This document shows, one piece after another, positions 3,360-62,156 of a stretch of DNA of 64,000 nt. Location of the stretch: sequence record MH550421, one strand, 5' to 3'. The stretch is from Enterobacteria phage T6. The translations under genes were made by a program, and so were the position numbers. The first letter of the stretch is position 1; the number at the start of each line of letters is the position of its first letter. The notes beneath the pieces are model-generated. The model saw only the letters and a list, made by a program, of their open reading frames with translations, was not told where the DNA came from and did no database searches.

Positions 3360-3770
3360 TCAGCCTCTATCAACGATAGTATGAGTATGGGCATTTACGA
3401 TTTGCCACCAGTCAAAGCGATTGGAACCATAATCTGGTTTATTTTCATTTTCTTTAATGATATCACGCAGTTTATCTTCTGTTTCAGCATACGCAATTAA
3501 ATCATCATATCCACCACAAGGGTAATAATTATCACCTGCGAATAAAAGAAAATTTACCTTAGATGGATTTACGTAATAATGGTCTTTAGGATATTTAGTT
3601 CCTCTCCAATCAGTTACTTCAACATAACGGTAAGAAAATCCATTTTTACTTTCAATCCAACTCCACGCTTCAAAAGGAGTATTAAAAACTTTATCAGGTA
3701 TTAAATTACCTTCAAAATGAGAAGGATTTGCATAATCCCCAGCATAAACATAGTATTCGTTAATACTCAT
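3360..3770 (-). CDS. hypothetical early protein (136 aa from ATG at 3770; track ORF to 3803)
   Basis: AAAGGTG RBS upstream of internal ATG (MSINEYYVYAGDY...); Tyr/Trp-rich. Confidence 0.65.
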   Translation of the reverse strand: MSINEYYVYAGDYANPSHFEGNLIPDKVFNTPFEAWSWIESKNGFSYRYVEVTDWRGTKYPKDHYYVNPSKVNFLLFAGDNYYPCGGYDDLIAYAETEDKLRDIIKENENKPDYGSNRFDWWQIVNAHTHTIVDRG

Positions 3771-3771
3771 T

Positions 3772-3957
3772 CTATTCACCTTTAGAAATTTTATCCATAA
3801 CAATAGCGATTAAACCAATTAAAAATGCTACTACAAGTGAAAACACATTTTCTGCTGTAGTCAATAATCCGCATATAAATCCAACAAACATTGAAAAACT
3901 AAAAGCGGAAGCAGAAATTGCAATAGCAACATTTCGAATTAATTCACAACGTTTCAT
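3772..3957 (-). CDS. small hydrophobic membrane protein (61 aa)
   Basis: ORF with GAGGAG RBS; sequence dominated by one hydrophobic helix (IAISASAFSFSMFVGFICGLLT). Confidence 0.6.
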   Translation of the reverse strand: MKRCELIRNVAIAISASAFSFSMFVGFICGLLTTAENVFSLVVAFLIGLIAIVMDKISKGE

Positions 3958-3985
3958 TTTATTCTCCTCAGTAGTTGATAGGGTA

Positions 3986-4015
3986 ATAATATCACTACCC
4001 TATCTAAAAGTAAAC
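3986..4015 (-). promoter_or_regulatory. T4 early-type promoter with inverted repeat flanking the -10
   Basis: Minus GTTTAC, 18-nt spacer, TGATATTAT; arms GATAGGG/CCCTATC flank the -10. Confidence 0.45.
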
Positions 4016-4249
4016 TTATTTTTTACGAAAAATTGATTTATTTTCTGCTGCCCATTTTTCAATAATTGCAGCAGGACCAGTAACAACAATTTTATCACCG
4101 TAATCTTCTGCGGCGAGTTGACCGAAATTATCTAATGCATCACGAAGAACTCCATGAGGCATTTCACCCATTTTATCTTTCTTGCCAGTGTAAATAAACT
4201 CAACTTTTACATCAGCAGTTTCAGCAATAAATTCTTGGTAAGTTTTCAT
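4016..4249 (-). CDS. internal-protein-like small protein with capsid-targeting leader MKTYQEFIAE (77 aa from second ATG)
   Basis: Starts MKTYQEFIAE, the leader shared by T4 internal proteins, ending in an I-x-E prohead-protease motif; GGAAAT RBS; early promoter upstream. Confidence 0.7.
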   Translation of the reverse strand: MKTYQEFIAETADVKVEFIYTGKKDKMGEMPHGVLRDALDNFGQLAAEDYGDKIVVTGPAAIIEKWAAENKSIFRKK

Positions 4250-4283
4250 TTTGATTTCCATTTGGTTTTGTTTTGATAGGGTA

Positions 4284-4313
4284 ATAGTATCACAACTAAA
4301 ACCCTATGTAAAC
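4284..4313 (-). promoter_or_regulatory. T4 early-type promoter with inverted repeat
   Basis: Minus GTTTAC, spacer, TGATACTAT; arms ATAGGGT/ACCCTAT flank the -10; 31-nt upstream block repeated at 4638-4668. Confidence 0.45.
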
Positions 4314-4325
4314 AACTTTGTGAAA

Positions 4326-4583
4326 TTATTTTAAATCTTCTAATCGTTTCTTCATCTTAGAACCATTTTTAGCAATTTCTCCTGCATCGGAGCATAATGC
4401 TAAAAGTGCTTTAACTTTAGTTTGGTCTCCTTTAAAAGATGAAGGATCGACCGCAGCAGCAAGTTCTTTAATACGAGAGAAAAGACGCTCAGCTTCAGCT
4501 AAAGCCATTCCAAGCTTTACTTCCATACCGTGGGAAGATTCAGTGATAGTAGTTTTTGTAGCAAACTCTTTGAAAGTTTTCAT
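4326..4583 (-). CDS. internal-protein-like small protein with leader MKTFKEFATK...ITE (85 aa)
   Basis: N-terminus resembles the capsid-targeting leader and contains an I-T-E cleavage motif; early promoter upstream. Confidence 0.65.
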   Translation of the reverse strand: MKTFKEFATKTTITESSHGMEVKLGMALAEAERLFSRIKELAAAVDPSSFKGDQTKVKALLALCSDAGEIAKNGSKMKKRLEDLK

Positions 4584-4613
4584 TTTATTTTCCTAATTAA
4601 TTTTGATGAGATA

Positions 4614-4643
4614 ATAGTATCACTACCTCATCAGCATGTAAAC
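4614..4643 (-). promoter_or_regulatory. T4 early-type promoter with inverted repeat
   Basis: Minus GTTTAC, spacer, TGATACTAT; arms TGATGAG/CTCATCA flank the -10. Confidence 0.45.
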
Positions 4644-4655
4644 AACTTTGTGAAA

Positions 4656-5352
<697 letters not shown>

Positions 5353-5353
<1 letters not shown>

Positions 5354-6078
5354 TATAGTACCTTTAGTGTATTTTTAATTTTAGAAAAAAGTTCTTCAAG
5401 AGAACCATCGTTTGTAATTACTAAATCGCCATCACGAATTGGCAATCCAGCTTCTGTAATATGTGTATCATTGGATTTTTGACCAGGACGAACTACATGA
5501 ATTACTGTAGCACCCATCGCCCTAGCCGCATCCATTTCATGATCTTGACGGGTATCAGGAACGATATAATAATCATAACCTGAGTTAAATTTATCAAGAT
5601 AATCTAAAGCAAATAATTTTACCCAGTACATGCGGTCGAAGTTATTAACAATCAAATCCGTACCTAGGGCTTGCATCAGACGACGGACTGACCATTGATC
5701 TTCAATATTATTTATAACGTCAATAATCTTGTTAAATGCTACGGAATTAACTGATTCTTGTCCTTCGTCATCAAAAACAAACACACCCTTAATTGGGCTT
5801 TTACCATTAAGATAGCAAAATGCTTGTTCCATAATCGTGATTACTTCTGATTTAGTCAGATTTAAATTAGTCTCACGATCATAGTCAATTCCTTCAAACT
5901 CTTTACGAGTTAAGCAAGGATAGTCAGTGTTTGCTGCAAATACGCCCCATGCATAAGCCAATGCATCTTTAATAGGACCAGCAAGTTGATATTTAACTGC
6001 AGAATAATTTTCCATGATAAAATCTGCAGTAGTATCTTTTCCACTACGCTTTACACCACTTAAAAAGATTAGTTTCAT
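5353..6078 (-). CDS. 1: gp1 deoxynucleoside monophosphate kinase
   Basis: 241 aa starting MKLIFLSGVKRSGKDT (P-loop); synteny 1-3-2-4. Confidence 0.9.
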
Positions 6079-54956: not shown

Positions 54957-55921
54957 TGTATTCTTTAGAGGAATTTAATAATCAAGCAATAAACGCAGAT
55001 TTTCAACGTAATAATATGTTTAGCTGCGTTTTTGCAACAACTCCATCAACTAAAAGCTCTTCGTTGATAAGTTCAATTAGCAACTTTTCTTATAATAACT
55101 TGGGCCTAAATTCAGATTGGCTAGGATTAACTCAAGGTGATATTAATCAGGGAATTACCACGCTAATTACAGCTGGCACACAAAAACTGATAAGAAAATC
55201 AGGGGTTAGTAAATATCTTATTGGTGCCATGAGTCAACGTACAGTTCAAAGTTTATTAGGCTCATTTACAGTTGGTACATATTTAATTGACTTCTTTAAC
55301 ATGGCATATAACTCATCTGGATTGATGATATACTCTGTAAAAATGCCAGAGAATAGATTATCCTATGAAACTGACTGGAACTATAATTCTCCTAATATTC
55401 GTATAACTGGAAGAGAATTAGACCCTTTGGTTATTTCATTTAGAATGGATTCAGAAGCTTGTAACTATCGTGCAATGCAAGACTGGGTTAACTCTGTTCA
55501 AGACCCAGTAACTGGATTACGTGCTTTGCCACAAGATGTCGAGGCAGATATTCAGGTTAATCTTCATTCTCGTAATGGATTGCCTCATACTGCGGTGATG
55601 TTCACCGGATGCATTCCAGTGTCAGTGAGCGCTCCTGAGTTATCATATGATGGAGATAACCAAATAACTACATTTGATGTTACTTTTGCGTATAGAGTCA
55701 TGCAGGCTGGAGCAGTTGATAGACAAGCTGCGCTTGAATGGCTTGAATCTGCTGCTATAAATGGTATTCAAAGCGTTCTCGGAAATAGTGGAGGTGTTAC
55801 TGGACTATCTAATTCGCTTTCACGACTTAGTAGACTAGGAGGAACCGCAGGAAGCATTTCAAACATTAATACTATGACAGGAATTGTCAATTCGCAGAGT
55901 AAAATATTAGGAGCAATATAA
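54956..55921 (+). CDS. 54: gp54 baseplate tail-tube initiator
   Basis: 321 aa; synteny. Confidence 0.9.
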   Translation: MYSLEEFNNQAINADFQRNNMFSCVFATTPSTKSSSLISSISNFSYNNLGLNSDWLGLTQGDINQGITTLITAGTQKLIRKSGVSKYLIGAMSQRTVQSLLGSFTVGTYLIDFFNMAYNSSGLMIYSVKMPENRLSYETDWNYNSPNIRITGRELDPLVISFRMDSEACNYRAMQDWVNSVQDPVTGLRALPQDVEADIQVNLHSRNGLPHTAVMFTGCIPVSVSAPELSYDGDNQITTFDVTFAYRVMQAGAVDRQAALEWLESAAINGIQSVLGNSGGVTGLSNSLSRLSRLGGTAGSISNINTMTGIVNSQSKILGAI

Positions 55922-55924
55922 CAA

Positions 55925-55950
55925 TGGGGACCGAAAGGTCCCCATATTTT
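55925..55950. terminator. terminator hairpin between gene 54 and alt.-3
   Basis: UGGGGACC-GAAA-GGUCCCCA followed by AUAUUUUUA. Confidence 0.55.
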
Positions 55951-56240
55951 TATTTACGGAATGAAATGAAAGCAGAAACTGAAGCAACTAAACTGTCTTC
56001 AATATAAACTTCAATTTTTACCGGAGCTTCTGACTCAAATTTACCTGTTACTACACCCTGAAAAATACTTTCAGTTTGTTCTGGCTTTGAAAAATTTTCA
56101 GAAGGAAAAATTCCGAACTTTTTATCTGTTCCAAAAATTTTAATAAATTCATCGTAAACTGCTTCATTAAAAGCATTATCAGCAGGAATAACGCCTTCAA
56201 CTACAAGTTCTTGACCTAAAAAGCGCAAAGAAGATTTCAT
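55950..56240 (-). CDS. alt.-3: hypothetical protein (alt.-3 position)
   Basis: 96 aa ORF downstream of the alt paralogs. Confidence 0.65.
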   Translation of the reverse strand: MKSSLRFLGQELVVEGVIPADNAFNEAVYDEFIKIFGTDKKFGIFPSENFSKPEQTESIFQGVVTGKFESEAPVKIEVYIEDSLVASVSAFISFRK

Positions 56241-56300
56241 TTTGTGTTCCTCATGTTATGTCAGTAAGACTATTATAACACAACATAAGGAACTTGTAAA

Positions 56301-58358
56301 CTACATTTTGAACTTTTTAGACATTCCGTTGATGTTAACCAAAGAAGCTAAGATTTGAGAAACTTCGTTTTCCTCTTCTTTTGATTCTTCTACAAGGAAT
56401 TGATTAAATCCAGTCATTGGACGAACTTCACCAGTTTCCATTAGATGGTCTCCATCATATACTGATTCTTCTAATTGTTCAGAAGGAGGAACGATTGTAC
56501 CTTCGATTAGATACTTGTTATAAGCAGTTTCTTTCATAAAGTACGTACTTACTTTATTAATCTTCAGTAAAATTCCACGCGGTAGAATAACTTCAGCTTC
56601 TGATGGAAATCCTGTTAAATGACCTGGAACGATAACTTTGATTCGCTCAGCTCCTTTAATTACCATACCCACGCTAGTTTCAGCATCTTCATTAGCATAT
56701 GTAGAATGACTACCCATATGCATCAAATCTTCTGCATCAACAGAACCTTCTCCTTCGCCAGAAAATACTTCACCGGAATCATCTAGAGCCATATAGTTTT
56801 TACCATGCTCACCGAAGATATTCGGTTTAAGCGATGTAGATACGAAGTTCTTGAAATAGAACATTTTGTTTTCAATGTTATGACGCAAAGTTTTAAAGGT
56901 AACTTCTTGTCCACGATAAAGCGTAGTTCCTGGAGGAAGAACTGAACCTTTAGCGAATGCAGAATCCAACGTCTCGATGTGCTTAATGGCACGTTCCATA
57001 TATTCTTCACGGGTAGAATCTGGTTTACCCAAAAGGAACGAGTTCATTTCAACATATGAATCTGCACAATAATCTTCAATTACATCAGATTCAGCTTGAG
57101 TTAATCCTTTTGGAGTTACTTCAGTACTTGCATATTCATACGCCTGAGCAGCAGATTCATTAATCAATTTATAAATGCCATTCATTACAAATTGAATAAT
57201 AGCTGTCTTTTCATCTGGCGTGGCTTTAGAACCTTTAACTAAATCATTAATAATTTTCTTAATAACATCAAAGCTATTAGAAATATTAATGTCAGCAAGA
57301 TCGCTTAAAATTTTATCAGTTTTATAATCAAAGAATTCTTTATTCTTTAAATATTCTTGAGAACCTTGATATGTTATATCGCTCTGCAGCTTGATAGATG
57401 GATCACGTAAACGCGCATGGGCCAATGCGATATGATTTCGGAAGTTTTCTAGTTCATAATCGCTAGATTTAAAACGAGAAGCACTCCTCATACCACCGAT
57501 AGCTCCTTTGCCGAAGTTTGAACCAATCTGGATAACGCCAGAGTTCATCGGACCTTCTGCTTTATATACCGGAACTTTAGATTCAAACTCTTGATATTTC
57601 TTGGCAGCGAAGCTATCACCCTGAAGTGAAGCATCAACAGTAGAATATTGAGCTTGTGCTGCTAATCGACGACTAATTTTAGTTTTCTGAATAACAGCTT
57701 GGTCCGTGCGCTTATCATTTTCTAAAGCAATAGAAGCAGCAACAGCGACAGCTTTAGGAACAGCATTACCTGTTTTAACGTCTACATAAACATCACCAAC
57801 CTTTGATTCAACTTTTGTGAATAACTCAGTTGAAATAGGAGGTACACCTGGAATGTCTTCTAAATTGGCATTTTTACGGTAAACCATAATATATGCGTAC
57901 TTTTTATCATAATCCCAGATTTCCTTTAAAAGAACATATCGACCTGCTCCTTTAATACGTACTAAACGGTCAGCAATAACTTGCATTTGACGAGCAGCGC
58001 CATTTGTTTTACTTTTTAGTACGCGGAATAAGCATGCGTCGATTTTATACTGTTTCATTGTTTGAAGAGCAGTATCAAAAACAGCATTAATGACGCCAAT
58101 TGGATTTCCACCCAAGTTTTTAAGCTTGACTAACGATAATTTCTCGTTGACACCTATCATTACGATATGCATCATTTTATCGCCTGGCTTAACGTTTTTA
58201 TTTGTATCACCGCCAGAGGTGTATGTACAAAATCTAAATCCAGGAAGCACACTTTCTTCGCCGGCTTGAATAGCAAAAATTTGTGGTATTTTATGCTTAG
58301 GATTTAAGTTAACAACCGGCGCCGAAGCGCCGTCAAATAATTCTGTAATAAGTTCCAT
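56301..58358 (-). CDS. Alt-family ADP-ribosyltransferase paralog (685 aa)
   Basis: N-terminus MELITELFD and first about 200 aa parallel the neighbouring alt; C-terminal Arg-STS-ExE motifs YRGQEV...FVSTSL...EAEVILPRG. Confidence 0.85.
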   Translation of the reverse strand: MELITELFDGASAPVVNLNPKHKIPQIFAIQAGEESVLPGFRFCTYTSGGDTNKNVKPGDKMMHIVMIGVNEKLSLVKLKNLGGNPIGVINAVFDTALQTMKQYKIDACLFRVLKSKTNGAARQMQVIADRLVRIKGAGRYVLLKEIWDYDKKYAYIMVYRKNANLEDIPGVPPISTELFTKVESKVGDVYVDVKTGNAVPKAVAVAASIALENDKRTDQAVIQKTKISRRLAAQAQYSTVDASLQGDSFAAKKYQEFESKVPVYKAEGPMNSGVIQIGSNFGKGAIGGMRSASRFKSSDYELENFRNHIALAHARLRDPSIKLQSDITYQGSQEYLKNKEFFDYKTDKILSDLADINISNSFDVIKKIINDLVKGSKATPDEKTAIIQFVMNGIYKLINESAAQAYEYASTEVTPKGLTQAESDVIEDYCADSYVEMNSFLLGKPDSTREEYMERAIKHIETLDSAFAKGSVLPPGTTLYRGQEVTFKTLRHNIENKMFYFKNFVSTSLKPNIFGEHGKNYMALDDSGEVFSGEGEGSVDAEDLMHMGSHSTYANEDAETSVGMVIKGAERIKVIVPGHLTGFPSEAEVILPRGILLKINKVSTYFMKETAYNKYLIEGTIVPPSEQLEESVYDGDHLMETGEVRPMTGFNQFLVEESKEEENEVSQILASLVNINGMSKKFKM

Positions 58359-58361
58359 GAT

Positions 58362-60458
58362 TTATCCTTGAACGAACTTGTAAGGCATGTTTGTAATATC
58401 TATGCAAGACGCAATAATTCCAAGAGATGATTCTACTTTCTGTTTAACATTTGATGAAACAAATGATGCAAAGTCAACTCTGTCTTCTATTTCAATATCA
58501 CCTGTCATTGCAACTACTTCACCGGTTTCCATTAAACAGTCTCCGTCATAGATTACCGATTCGGTGAGTTCTTCTGTGGTCATAACTTCAGCTTGAATGA
58601 GTTTTGTATTGTTAGATGTTGTTCCATCATTATTAGAAGCATCAGTTATTTTATTAACTTTGACCATTAATCCGCGCGGTAGAATAACTTCAGCTTCTGT
58701 TGCTATTCCGAGACTTCCTGGATATACAACATTAACTTTATGAGCTCCATCAATTGCCCATCCTATTTGAACTTTAACGTATTCAGGATTTTCTTTATAC
58801 GCTCTTATTTCGTTTGGATTAATAGTTATTCCTTCTTCATTTTTATCAACTGTTAATTCATTGCGAGCTTCTGGTTCTAAAAGACCAATACCAGCATGTG
58901 TAATTCCAAAACGTCCAAAAATGATAGGAGTTAAAGAAGTAGATACAAAATTTCTGAAATAGAATACTTTATTTTTAACTAGCGCTTCGTATATAGGAGC
59001 AGTCATACTTTGAGCACGATAAACTGTAATGCCTTCCGGTATGCGGTCACCATTTTCAAAAGCTGAATCTAAATTATTTATAGCAGATTCAATTTCTTTT
59101 TCACTCATTACATCATATCGTTCTGGATTGTAACGACCTAAAAGAAGATTATTAATGTCTGTATATCCTGAACCACAATACTCTCTAATACCGCGCTTTT
59201 GCGATGGAGTATATTTAGAACCATCACGGGCAATAGTAATATCAATCATTGGGCCTGCACCAATTCCAGAAAAACTATAAATCATTCGTTTGAGGAATTT
59301 AGTTTTTGCTGCATTCCAGGCATTTTTAGTTATTTCTCCCCAGACTTCATCTGGTTGCCCTTTACGAGTTTTATTATGTTTATCAAGCCAATTATCTTTA
59401 TATTCTTCAAAGAATTGATTGACAGCTGCTGCGTATTTCTCTAAACATTTTATTGAAGTAGTTGGTTCATTTTTGATCGCATTAAGAATTACATCTTTAA
59501 TTTTTTCGGAAACTTCATTAACCTCACTTTTTGAAAAGAATTTATAGTCATAGTGAAGTTCATTCGCAGTTCCTTCGGCAATAATTTTTGCTGCCTTAGT
59601 TTTAGAAGCTAATGAATTAATTCCAAGCTTCATTTCTTCTGCTTCGGGAATTAAAGGAGCAGTAGCAGGTTTATTGAAATTAGCTGCGGTAGATTCATAC
59701 TTCTGGAATAATTCACTTTCAAATCTAGAAGATTCCAATGACTGACTTTGTGCAATTGCTCTACGGGAAATTTTAACTTTAACGATTACAGCTTGGTCAG
59801 AACGTTTATCATTTTCTTGTGCAATAGATGCTGCAATTGCCTCATTTTTAGTTACTTGAGCTCCAGTATCTTTATTGATATAAACATCACCGACCTTCGA
59901 TTCAACCTTAGTAAAGAGCTCGGTACTAATTTCCGGAACTCCTGGAATGTCTTCTAGTGATACATTTTTGCGATGTATAAGAATATATGCATACTTTTTA
60001 TCATAATCCCAGAGTTCCTTAAGAAGGACGTATCTTCCACCTGAACGACTACGGATAAGTCTATCAGCAATAACTTGAATTTGTCGAGCTTGGCCAGCAG
60101 TTTTAGACTTAAGAATACGAAGCATGCAGGCATCAATTTTATACTGACGCATTGTTTGCATTGCAACAGTAAAAACTGAATTGATATAATTAATTGGGCT
60201 TGGTCCAAGACCTTTTAATTTAGCAATTGAACCTTTAGCAGTTAATGTAAAAGGAACAATATGCATCATTTTATCGCCCATTTTTAAATCGCGATTAGTA
60301 TCACCTCCGGATGTATAGGTACATAAACGAAAGCCTGGTTGTTCAATTGCATCATCAACATGAACTGAAAAAATTTGCGGTATTTTCTTCTTTGGATTTA
60401 AGTTTGTAATTGGAAGAGTAGTATCTTCGTCAAATAATTCTGTAATGAGTTCCATCAT
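58362..60458 (-). CDS. alt: Alt ADP-ribosyltransferase (698 aa)
   Basis: MMELITELFD...; C-terminal YRAQSM...FVSTSLTP...EAEVILPRG; position next to ligase gene 30. Confidence 0.9.
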   Translation of the reverse strand: MMELITELFDEDTTLPITNLNPKKKIPQIFSVHVDDAIEQPGFRLCTYTSGGDTNRDLKMGDKMMHIVPFTLTAKGSIAKLKGLGPSPINYINSVFTVAMQTMRQYKIDACMLRILKSKTAGQARQIQVIADRLIRSRSGGRYVLLKELWDYDKKYAYILIHRKNVSLEDIPGVPEISTELFTKVESKVGDVYINKDTGAQVTKNEAIAASIAQENDKRSDQAVIVKVKISRRAIAQSQSLESSRFESELFQKYESTAANFNKPATAPLIPEAEEMKLGINSLASKTKAAKIIAEGTANELHYDYKFFSKSEVNEVSEKIKDVILNAIKNEPTTSIKCLEKYAAAVNQFFEEYKDNWLDKHNKTRKGQPDEVWGEITKNAWNAAKTKFLKRMIYSFSGIGAGPMIDITIARDGSKYTPSQKRGIREYCGSGYTDINNLLLGRYNPERYDVMSEKEIESAINNLDSAFENGDRIPEGITVYRAQSMTAPIYEALVKNKVFYFRNFVSTSLTPIIFGRFGITHAGIGLLEPEARNELTVDKNEEGITINPNEIRAYKENPEYVKVQIGWAIDGAHKVNVVYPGSLGIATEAEVILPRGLMVKVNKITDASNNDGTTSNNTKLIQAEVMTTEELTESVIYDGDCLMETGEVVAMTGDIEIEDRVDFASFVSSNVKQKVESSLGIIASCIDITNMPYKFVQG

Positions 60459-60478
60459 ATCCTCTCTAGTGTTTATTC

Positions 60479-60486
60479 TATTTATA
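60479..60486 (-). promoter_or_regulatory. late promoter TATAAATA (alt)
   Basis: Plus TATTTATA about 21 nt upstream of alt start. Confidence 0.5.
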
Positions 60487-60488
60487 AA

Positions 60489-60506
60489 ATTAAAGGCCCG
60501 AAGGCC
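60489..60506 (-). terminator. terminator-like hairpin upstream of alt
   Basis: Minus AAAGGCC-UUCG-GGCCUUU followed by U-rich run. Confidence 0.5.
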
Positions 60507-60507
60507 T

Positions 60508-60696
60508 TTAATAATCTAGTGGTAAGAGAGTACGGTATATTTCAAACTTTGGACCTTTTTCATAGGCATCAAATGTTTCTGTAAATTTATTATAAGCATA
60601 TGCATCTACAAATTCGAGAACGACTTGTGATACAGAAGTAGAAACATCTCCACCTTCTTTTTGAGCTACGACAACTGTTTCTAAGTAAGCTTTCAT
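60508..60696 (-). CDS. hypothetical small protein (62 aa)
   Basis: ORF overlapping ligase stop (ATGA). Confidence 0.6.
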   Translation of the reverse strand: MKAYLETVVVAQKEGGDVSTSVSQVVLEFVDAYAYNKFTETFDAYEKGPKFEIYRTLLPLDY

Positions 60697-62156
60697 AGAC
60701 CAGTTACCTCATGAAAATCACCAAATACATCTTCGAATGTATTAGCTTTAGTTTTATCTTCACGCAAACGAATCGCAATTGGAAGAAATAATTTAACGTA
60801 ATCAGTGCGGCCATCAGATTTTAACCAACCGTTGCATTCGCACTCTAGAATTTTTCCAATATAATAATTTTGGTTTTCCATAATGCGAGTACGGTCAAGT
60901 TCATGTGATTTTACGCCGGCTTTATCTTTTAAGCCTGAACCAGCATTTACCTTAATTTTTCCACACTCTGACTCAAGAATAAATCCACCTGCTTTAGTAG
61001 GGTCTTTACGGTGAGGATAAATTCCTACAATTTTTAAATCAACATCAATTACTTCTTTAAATTTATAGAGATTTTTCGAACGAGCATTTTCCCATAATCC
61101 ATCGATATTTTTGAGAATAATACCTTCAAGACCTTGGTCAATATACTTTTTATAAATTACCTTAGCTTCATCTAGGTTATTTACTACCTGGTTTTCAATT
61201 AAAATTACTTTATCATAGCCTGATGTCATTTGTTCTAATTTAGAAAAACGTACATCATATTTCAAGCGAAATGCTGGAAGACCGTATACTTCTACCAACG
61301 GGACATAATCCCAGACCTGAAACTTCATGCATTGTGCTTCTTTTTCAGAAATGGTTCCCTTTAAAGATTTATTGGCGATGCCATTAGATGCAGTACGTGA
61401 TTCAGCTACTTCTGTGAAGTCTTTAACTTTACTGTTTTCAGGATGAGCATCAAAAAGAAAATCTAGGCCTTCTGGCTCCTTTTTAACTTGCTCATGGTAT
61501 ACCAATTCGCCATCAATTAACACGCCTTCTGGATGAATCTGGCGAGCTTCAGCGGTCATTTTGATTAACTCTTCTTTAAGAAGATCTAATCCTAGATATT
61601 CATTACCAGCTCGTGATAAAAGACGAACATCATCTAATTCATCACCTCTGACTTCAGCAAAGCACCGAGCCCCATCAGCTTTTAACTGGGCAAAGGCTGG
61701 AAATTTAATATTCTTATTAATGCCTTTTTCATCATAAGAACTTGCAAGCATTTGAGGTTGTTCAGGAATTAAACCTGGCCAAACTTTGTTTGCAATAGAT
61801 ACCGAAGCACCGCATTCAAGGTCTCGCATCATCACTCGACGCAAAACTTCAACATCATCTTTTTTACCATCGGTGATGTATCCAGTTAATTCCTCAATTG
61901 CCGCATTTCCAGTCAATTTCCGAGTAGCTAACGTGAATTCAATGAAGTCAAGCATATCAGTAAGAGTCAACATTCCAAAACTCTGGGTAGCAATACCAGG
62001 TTTAGGCCATTTCTTGATATAATACTGTAACCCACGAGAATAAGTCAGACGATATACCCGTTTAAGCAATTCATTATCTTTATTCTTTTCAAGAATTGCT
62101 TGTTTTTGTTTAGTTGAACCAATAGATGCTATTTCGTTCAGAATTTTAAGAATCAT
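60693..62156 (-). CDS. 30: gp30 ATP-dependent DNA ligase
   Basis: 487 aa starting MILKILNEIASIGSTKQKQAILEKNKDNELLKRVYRLTY; adenylation Lys in FAQLKADGARC. Confidence 0.95.
   Translation of the reverse strand: MILKILNEIASIGSTKQKQAILEKNKDNELLKRVYRLTYSRGLQYYIKKWPKPGIATQSFGMLTLTDMLDFIEFTLATRKLTGNAAIEELTGYITDGKKDDVEVLRRVMMRDLECGASVSIANKVWPGLIPEQPQMLASSYDEKGINKNIKFPAFAQLKADGARCFAEVRGDELDDVRLLSRAGNEYLGLDLLKEELIKMTAEARQIHPEGVLIDGELVYHEQVKKEPEGLDFLFDAHPENSKVKDFTEVAESRTASNGIANKSLKGTISEKEAQCMKFQVWDYVPLVEVYGLPAFRLKYDVRFSKLEQMTSGYDKVILIENQVVNNLDEAKVIYKKYIDQGLEGIILKNIDGLWENARSKNLYKFKEVIDVDLKIVGIYPHRKDPTKAGGFILESECGKIKVNAGSGLKDKAGVKSHELDRTRIMENQNYYIGKILECECNGWLKSDGRTDYVKLFLPIAIRLREDKTKANTFEDVFGDFHEVTGL

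Follow-up and report, generated by a model that had tools for sequence, protein, structure and literature searches.

Among phage enzymes that are delivered with the DNA and reprogram the host before phage genes are read, Alt is the textbook example, and to our knowledge all Alt biochemistry stems from T4. The locus considered here raises the question of whether the relatives of T4 bring a second, different enzyme of this family into the cell. In a window of 64,000 nucleotides (nt) from Enterobacteria phage T6 (record MH550421; all positions are those of this window), the minus strand carries alt, coding for 697 amino acids (aa), followed by a gene for a paralogue of 685 aa, here called the second copy (Table 1). 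A reading made from the letters alone (the sequence-only reading) had proposed that both are full-length ADP-ribosyltransferases of the Alt family with unrelated middle parts. A pair of annotated Alt-like genes is in itself not new: RefSeq names both T6 genes 'Alt-like RNA polymerase ADP-ribosyltransferase', and tandem Alt paralogues were noted by Nolan et al. 2006 (PMC1524935). Our literature search on alt.-2, as the orthologue is called in phage RB32, returned that one relevant paper, with a single sentence, and functional work on a second Alt was not found. The pair is already known through annotation; there is apparently no study of the second enzyme, which is functionally unexplored.

The intact pair is the norm in the genus, being present in about four in five close relatives, and T4 is the exception. 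Using the 4.85-kb stretch 55900-60750, in which the window and both T6 genome records are 100% identical, as a probe for the whole locus, we found 356 phage records holding at least 80% of it at high identity. The 685-aa protein is encoded at 95% identity or more in 396 records, and its middle part is found at 90% or more in 401, including T2, RB32, RB3 and many Shigella, Yersinia and Serratia isolates; the middle of the T6-type Alt is found at 90% or more in 312. The junction of the T4 deletion, searched for as a one-piece match to a 131-nt probe, occurs in only 91 records. RB32 alt.-2 (YP_803136) is the same gene as the T6 second copy, with 99.1% protein identity and the same position and length, and its orthologues in Tequatrovirus, more than 400 including T2, show no difference of substance. 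The sequence-only reading had stated that the second copy is fragmented in T4, and this is correct, as T4 carries only a remnant in place of the same intact pair; its implication that an intact pair is rare was wrong, since the pair, in about 400 records, outnumbers the T4 deletion, in about 91, and is the majority state in the genus.

In T4, two small open reading frames (ORFs), alt.-1 and alt.-2, lie between alt and alt.-3. With about 97% identity in DNA, they align to codons 1-116 of the second copy in T6; they are one base short in an A-run near codon 54 (a 1-nt frameshift), and past codon 116 there is a jump in the T4 sequence, straight to the gene's final codons. In T6 the end points of this jump are two copies of a 9-bp direct repeat, CTAAAAAGT. 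When the 1,699 bp between these copies were removed in silico, the T4 sequence was obtained, with 347 of 359 positions identical and a single 1-nt gap. By this reconstruction, T4 and about 90 other records lost the second copy through an out-of-frame deletion of 1,699 bp between the CTAAAAAGT repeats plus a frameshift. Because the in silico deletion reproduces the T4 sequence, alt.-1 and alt.-2 are evidently the remnant of a full-length paralogue and not a partial duplication, in contrast to the T4 record (NP_049810, NP_049809), which describes them as 'a duplication of the first part of gene alt'. The RB32 note 'apparent insertion in alt.-2' takes T4 as the reference, whereas our data show the reverse, a deletion in T4.

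By all criteria that can be tested on a sequence, Alt and the second copy are full-length members of the Alt family. Both match phrog_802 from end to end (E=1.3e-272 for Alt, E=3.3e-255 for the second copy) and Pfam PF03496 (129.1 and 70.4 bits, respectively, at a cut-off of 23.4), and their relatives in a large protein database carry PF03496 together with PF26846. The catalytic arginine (R480 in Alt, R482 in the second copy), the S-T-S motif and the E-x-E motif (E587-A-E589 in both) are kept in the two proteins, and the corresponding columns are invariant in alignments of 32 and 29 sequences. The catalytic domains of both model as ADP-ribosyltransferases of the C3/VIP2/Vis type and match solved C3/VIP2-like members (the R-S-E clade) in structure. 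A search of solved structures by sequence gave no PDB chain matching the 685-aa protein at E<=0.01, and neither T6 Alt protein matched a model in NCBIfam. Because its motif is E-x-E rather than Q-x-E, the second copy probably modifies arginines. The ORFs lie where the sequence-only reading had placed them, and its assignment of a tandem full-length pair, its catalytic signature and its common start MELITELFD all hold, the last with the Alt start at 60455. Taken from its first ATG (58362..60458, minus strand), the upstream ORF has 698 aa and begins MMELITE; a GAGG precedes the second ATG, at 60455, by 5 nt, which is a better spacing than that of the first ATG, and both RefSeq and T4 use this second start, with which the protein has 697 aa and begins MELITE. 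The T6 alt gene has also been deposited as a single gene (X69894).

Table 1. Positions of the two T6 Alt genes, of their modules and motifs, and of signals in and around them
Feature	Position	Strand	Remark
alt, 697 aa	58362..60455	-	T6-type allele; ORF runs to 60458
Alt I-T-E6	60446-60438	-	
Alt R480 (Y-R480-A-Q)	within 59021-59010	-	
Alt S505-T-S507	58943-58935	-	
Alt E587-A-E589	58697-58689	-	
Alt L-T-E632	58568-58560	-	
Second full-length Alt paralogue, 685 aa	56301..58358	-	RB32 alt.-2 orthologue
Second copy, N-terminal module, aa 1-235	57654..58358	-	alpha/beta domain; includes M-E-L-I-T-E6/L
Second copy, middle module, aa 236-410	57129..57653	-	predicted all-helical, pLDDT about 78-91
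Second copy, ADP-ribosyltransferase domain, aa 411-622	56493..57128	-	
Second copy R482 (Y-R482-G-Q)	within 56918-56907	-	
Second copy S507-T-S509	56840-56832	-	
Second copy E587-A-E589	56600-56592	-	
Second copy L629-E-E631	56466..56474	-	aligns with T4 Alt L-T-E619; E631 column invariant
Direct repeat CTAAAAAGT, 9 bp, left copy	58011..58019	-	codon 114 of second copy; deletion end point
Direct repeat CTAAAAAGT, 9 bp, right copy	56312..56320	-	codon 680 of second copy; deletion end point
Late promoter motif, T4-type, TATAAATA	60479..60486	-	24 nt before alt start, directly past alt.1 terminator hairpin; motif only
Hairpin AAAGGCC-TTCG-GGCCTTT	60492..60509	-	past alt.1 stop codon; read from sequence; missed by simple terminator scan
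Hairpin, 9-bp stem, ATGGGGACC...GGTCCCCAT	55924-55945	both	T-runs either side, between converging genes 54 and alt.-3

The identity between the two T6 proteins is 40% over the full length in BLASTP (E=3e-157) and by region amounts to 67-68% for residues 1-235, about 17% for 236-410, 35-37% in the catalytic domain and 41-45% in the C-terminal tail. The closely similar beginning of about 200 residues described in the sequence-only reading was recovered, at 68% identity over 1-235 in the pairwise alignment, as were the unrelated central regions: compared alone by BLASTP, the two middles gave no significant match (best E=11), and a profile-profile comparison (hhalign) of the middles of the two orthologue groups gave a probability of 0.6%, over 18 boundary columns. 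For both middles a helical structure is predicted. Between S-T-S and E-x-E, the loops of the two copies likewise cannot be aligned (a window of 3% identity). Recent gene conversion was considered as the cause of the N-terminal likeness and ruled out by the saturated synonymous sites, the synonymous divergence (dS) between the two T6 N-terminal modules being 1.75.

The middle of the second copy, searched in Pfam and PHROGs, returned nothing beyond the whole-protein Alt family. A HMMER search with this middle alone against 1.84 billion representative proteins gave one hit, a repeat protein of 1,147 aa with no meaningful Pfam annotation. The two have in common only a motif of about 25 aa, G-L-x-x-A-x-R-F-x-x-x-D-Y-x-L-Q-N-F, which is present at least 8 times in the repeat protein and lies at residues 280-306 of the second copy (about 57441-57521, minus strand); the hit was judged uninformative as a clue to the function of the middle. 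The library is clustered at 50% identity, so that the orthologues of the second copy are evidently represented in it by a sequence with a different middle.

The second copy is under strong constraint, since its ratio of non-synonymous to synonymous rates (dN/dS) between T6 and RB32 is 0.037 (42 synonymous and 6 non-synonymous differences), as low as that of alt (0.032). Taken module by module, the second copy has low ratios throughout, that of the middle being 0.015 (1 non-synonymous vs 16 synonymous differences).

Two full-length tandem Alt genes also occupy the same locus in Dhakavirus (IME341, JS10) and in the Aeromonas phages 31.2 and 44RR. The contrast between the modules seen in T6 recurs there: upstream and downstream copies are 67% identical in the N-terminal module, 14-17% in the middle and 33-43% in the catalytic domain in Dhakavirus, and 56-58%, 17-24% and 34-35%, respectively, in Aeromonas 31.2. 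When copies are compared by position across genera, the T6 and Dhakavirus upstream proteins are 45-47% identical in the N-terminal module, 64-65% in the middle and 95% in the catalytic domain, and the downstream proteins 44-45%, 46-48% and 54-55%, with 66% in the C-terminal tail. Overall, N-terminal identity is 33-46% across genera and 56-68% between the paralogues of one genome (in T6, 57654-58358 vs 59742-60455, minus strand). From these comparisons, the N-terminal module groups by genome, whereas for the middle, the catalytic domain and the tail it is the position that decides the grouping. Because the latter three do so across genera, the two effector types are older than the Tequatrovirus/Dhakavirus split, and the T6 second copy is an old paralogue common with Dhakavirus, whose downstream copy is its orthologue in the middle, catalytic and C-terminal parts. 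The Aeromonas pair has no clear one-to-one relation to either T6 copy. A guess would be that the N-terminal module has co-evolved with the prohead core of each phage.

The upstream gene has a mosaic history of its own. T6 and T4 Alt are 99.6% identical over the N-terminal 238 aa (dS 0.09) and near-identical over the last 65 aa (dS 0.07), whereas in the internal part (58560-59740, minus strand) the identity is 32% in the middle and 66% in the catalytic domain, with saturated synonymous sites. The T6 catalytic domain is, in turn, 95% identical in aa and 89.6% in nt to that of the upstream Alt of Dhakavirus IME341 (dS 0.51), within saturated flanks. A saturated interior between near-identical flanks, together with a near-identical catalytic domain in Dhakavirus, indicates that effector cassettes have been replaced within alt and exchanged between genera. 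The locus thus appears modular, with a genome-specific N-terminal module and exchangeable middle and catalytic cassettes.

T4 Alt (gpAlt, NP_049811) resembles the T6 pair in its four-part architecture, locus, catalytic residues and ITE-6 and L-x-E motifs. The 685-aa protein differs from it in being only about 40% identical overall and in having an unrelated middle, and T6 Alt itself differs from it internally, in the middle and catalytic domain, so the targets of T4 Alt cannot simply be transferred to either T6 protein. We take the middle of the second copy (aa 236-410) to be a target-recognition or adaptor module. Since neither this helical middle nor the loop before E-x-E has any sequence relation to its counterpart in Alt, and the identity of the catalytic domains is only about 35%, the second copy most likely acts on other host proteins than Alt does.

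It could instead be supposed that the second copy is a redundant back-up, adding to the dosage of Alt on the same host targets (Arg265 of RNA polymerase alpha and the other Alt substrates), with the middle as a neutral spacer. The two copies do have the same architecture, catalytic residues, N-terminal module and processing motifs, and T4 grows well without a second copy, Alt itself being non-essential (PMC9026906). We nevertheless consider this unlikely: a middle under such purifying selection (dN/dS 0.015), conserved at 90% or more in 401 records, is a misfit for a neutral spacer; the two middle types have been distinct since before Tequatrovirus and Dhakavirus separated; and the catalytic domains have diverged to about 35% identity, with an unalignable loop before E-x-E.

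Concerning delivery, T4 Alt is known as a head-packaged NAD+:arginine ADP-ribosyltransferase, a component of the prohead core of which each head has about 40 copies and which is injected together with the DNA (PMC9026906). It is cut by the prohead protease at ITE-6 and LTE-619, which yields a 68-kDa form (PMC5694885). Cleavage motifs for this protease, gp21, are found at both ends of both T6 proteins, namely ITE at residues 4-6 in each, LTE at 630-632 in Alt and LEE at 629-631 in the second copy. The proposal of the sequence-only reading that the I-T-E motif is consistent with a prohead-protease site stands, the motif being the I-T-E6 site that is cut in T4 Alt (PMC5694885). The P1 glutamate columns at both sites (E6, and E632 in Alt or E631 in the second copy) are invariant in the alignments, and the predicted structures lose confidence or become disordered exactly past the C-terminal L-x-E. 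An earlier candidate for the C-terminal cleavage site, L-M-E/T-G-E, was replaced by the mapped T4 site LTE-619 (PMC5694885), which aligns to LTE-632 and LEE-631.

The arrangement of the two genes points in the same direction. Within the window, the T4-type late promoter motif has 23 matches vs 9.6 expected, one of them ahead of alt. The ATG of the second copy lies 4 nt past the alt stop codon, with an AAGGA 6-7 nt upstream, and the second copy appears to be translationally coupled to alt. The terminator scan found no minus-strand terminator between the pair and 55924-55945. Given the TATAAATA motif before alt, the 4-nt gene spacing with its AAGGA and the lack of a terminator until that hairpin, alt and the second copy are probably read from one late transcript, as expected of head proteins. 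A second exact TATAAATA lies within the alt coding region at 59075-59082 (minus strand), about 720 nt before the start of the second copy; this may have arisen by chance or may be an internal late promoter driving the second gene alone.

From the low dN/dS, the late promoter motif, both gp21 motifs and the disorder past the C-terminal one, we infer that the second protein, like Alt, is processed, packaged in the head and injected. The following architecture is proposed for both proteins: an N-terminal propeptide ending in I-T-E6 and an alpha/beta domain of about 230 aa, alike in the two paralogues; a helical middle of about 175 aa, wholly different between them; a C3/VIP2-like catalytic domain with Arg, S-T-S and E-x-E, in which the loop before E-x-E is divergent; and a flexible C-terminal propeptide that would start past the conserved L-x-E. 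Both proteins would be made late from the TATAAATA promoter at 60479-60486, would enter the prohead core by means of their common N-terminal module (aa 1-235, a putative prohead-core incorporation module) and would be trimmed at both ends by gp21. Retained in the head, they would then be injected together with the DNA and would ADP-ribosylate arginines of host proteins before the expression of any phage gene, the host proteins being different for the two enzymes since the middle and the loop before E-x-E differ. For the 685-aa protein all of this, that is packaging, cleavage, injection, enzymatic activity and distinct targets, is deduced from its sequence. Taken as a whole, a pair of tandem, co-transcribed late genes for modular arginine mono-ADP-ribosyltransferases, with this mechanism and the history described above, is an account in which we have good confidence.

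A different possibility is that the second copy is made and left out of the head, either acting late in the cell or having a non-enzymatic part, for example as a structural or scaffold-associated protein. Our search found no readable virion proteomics for the second copy, and packaging is not universal among phage ADP-ribosyltransferases, ModA and ModB being cytoplasmic. The probability that we give to this is small. The whole N-terminal module and both gp21 motifs are kept, with invariant P1 glutamates, and the gene appears translationally coupled to alt behind a late promoter motif; it is not obvious why an enzyme made late and left out of the head should keep all this. The catalytic residues are also invariant.

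The downstream copy appears to have decayed independently in several lineages: besides T4, it is split into two overlapping ORFs in Moonvirus CF1 (locus positions 3501-5623; a frameshift or a sequencing error), and in Krischvirus GEC-3S it is a 274-aa fragment (locus positions 5053-5877) with an annotated promoter before it. A reading of the second copy as a duplicate in decay, heading for the T4 state and intact in T6 only incidentally, would agree with its loss or breakage in T4-type phages (91 records), CF1 and GEC-3S, but this reading is highly improbable and nearly refuted by what selection and distribution show, with a dN/dS of 0.037 equal to that of alt, a frame intact at 95% or more in 396 records and orthologues retained across genera.

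A broader interpretation of the injected pair can be put forward tentatively, as a serious possibility that we would stop just short of calling probable: most T-even phages may inject two different arginine ADP-ribosyltransferases, T4 being atypical; the middle of Alt.-2 may reach host proteins untouched by Alt, possibly a target in takeover or counter-defence; and the alt locus may be a cassette system in which a genome-specific head-packaging module is joined to effector modules, made up of middle and catalytic domain, that move between alleles and even genera. Several points weigh against the main account of the two T6 genes given above. The PF03496 score of the second copy is about half that of Alt (70 vs 129 bits), and the short propeptides have been described only as possible targeting or tethering elements (PMC5694885). 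Neither an enzyme assay nor virion proteomics on the 685-aa protein turned up in our literature search; for phage fD1, whose orthologue is 98.5% identical, a virion proteome exists (PMC8309999), whose Table S3 could not be read at rows g190-g202, and since this proteome lists many non-structural proteins it would be weak evidence in any case. Moreover, about 91 records including T4 are without the gene and CF1 and GEC-3S have broken copies, so that the gene can be dispensed with in some conditions at least.

If two distinct enzymes are indeed delivered, T4, the source of all Alt biochemistry, is without an enzyme that most of its relatives probably inject. Because these relatives keep the second enzyme and T6 Alt has a different internal cassette, the substrate lists of T4 Alt may not describe the first seconds of infection by T2, T6 and most therapeutic or environmental T4-like phages. 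The two paralogues, together with the deletion in T4, offer a natural experiment on how injected ADP-ribosyltransferases choose their targets and on a possible role of the second enzyme against host defences.

Two other groups of enzymes can be compared with the pair. The toxins of the C3/VIP2/iota type (Vis, C3bot, CDTa, VIP2, Certhrax) have a sequence identity of only 13-25%, are without the N-terminal and helical modules of the phage proteins, and are delivered by secretion or through a binary-toxin pore, not by a capsid. ModA and ModB of T4 are likewise phage-encoded R-S-E ADP-ribosyltransferases that reprogram the host, but they are early, unpackaged proteins of about 200 aa, encoded at another locus and without the N-terminal or middle module.

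The pair is flanked by gene 30 (DNA ligase, 60693-62156) and alt.1 (60508-60696) on one side and by alt.-3 (55950-56240) on the other, beyond which the baseplate genes 48 and 54 run rightward, on the opposite strand to the pair; the order from gene 30 and alt.1 to alt.-3 and gene 54 is the same in T4, RB32, IME341, 31.2 and CF1. The hairpin past alt.1 would insulate the alt operon from early transcription upstream, and at the equivalent site a terminator is annotated in phage fPS-90. The hairpin between genes 54 and alt.-3 looks like a bidirectional terminator and would be the first terminator-like site downstream of both alt genes; the matching site in fPS-90 has a terminator annotated on both strands.

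As for the small neighbouring genes, alt.-3 (minus strand) codes for a protein of 96 aa of the family DUF5498. The best sigma-70-type promoter of the region, TTTACA-17-TATAAT with TG, lies at 56272-56300 (minus strand), just past the stop codon of the second copy; given this placement, alt.-3 is probably both an early gene in its own right and the last part of the late transcript. When the Alt.-3 of T4 has C-terminal extensions, the phage escapes the CmdTAC defence system (PMC11618068). On the other side, alt.1 (minus strand) codes for 62 aa and is named 'siderophore-interacting protein' in the T6 RefSeq record. Its product matches Pfam PF24647, 'Phage blade protein', over the whole length, and its PHROG is listed as of function unknown; the RefSeq name looks like an annotation carry-over.

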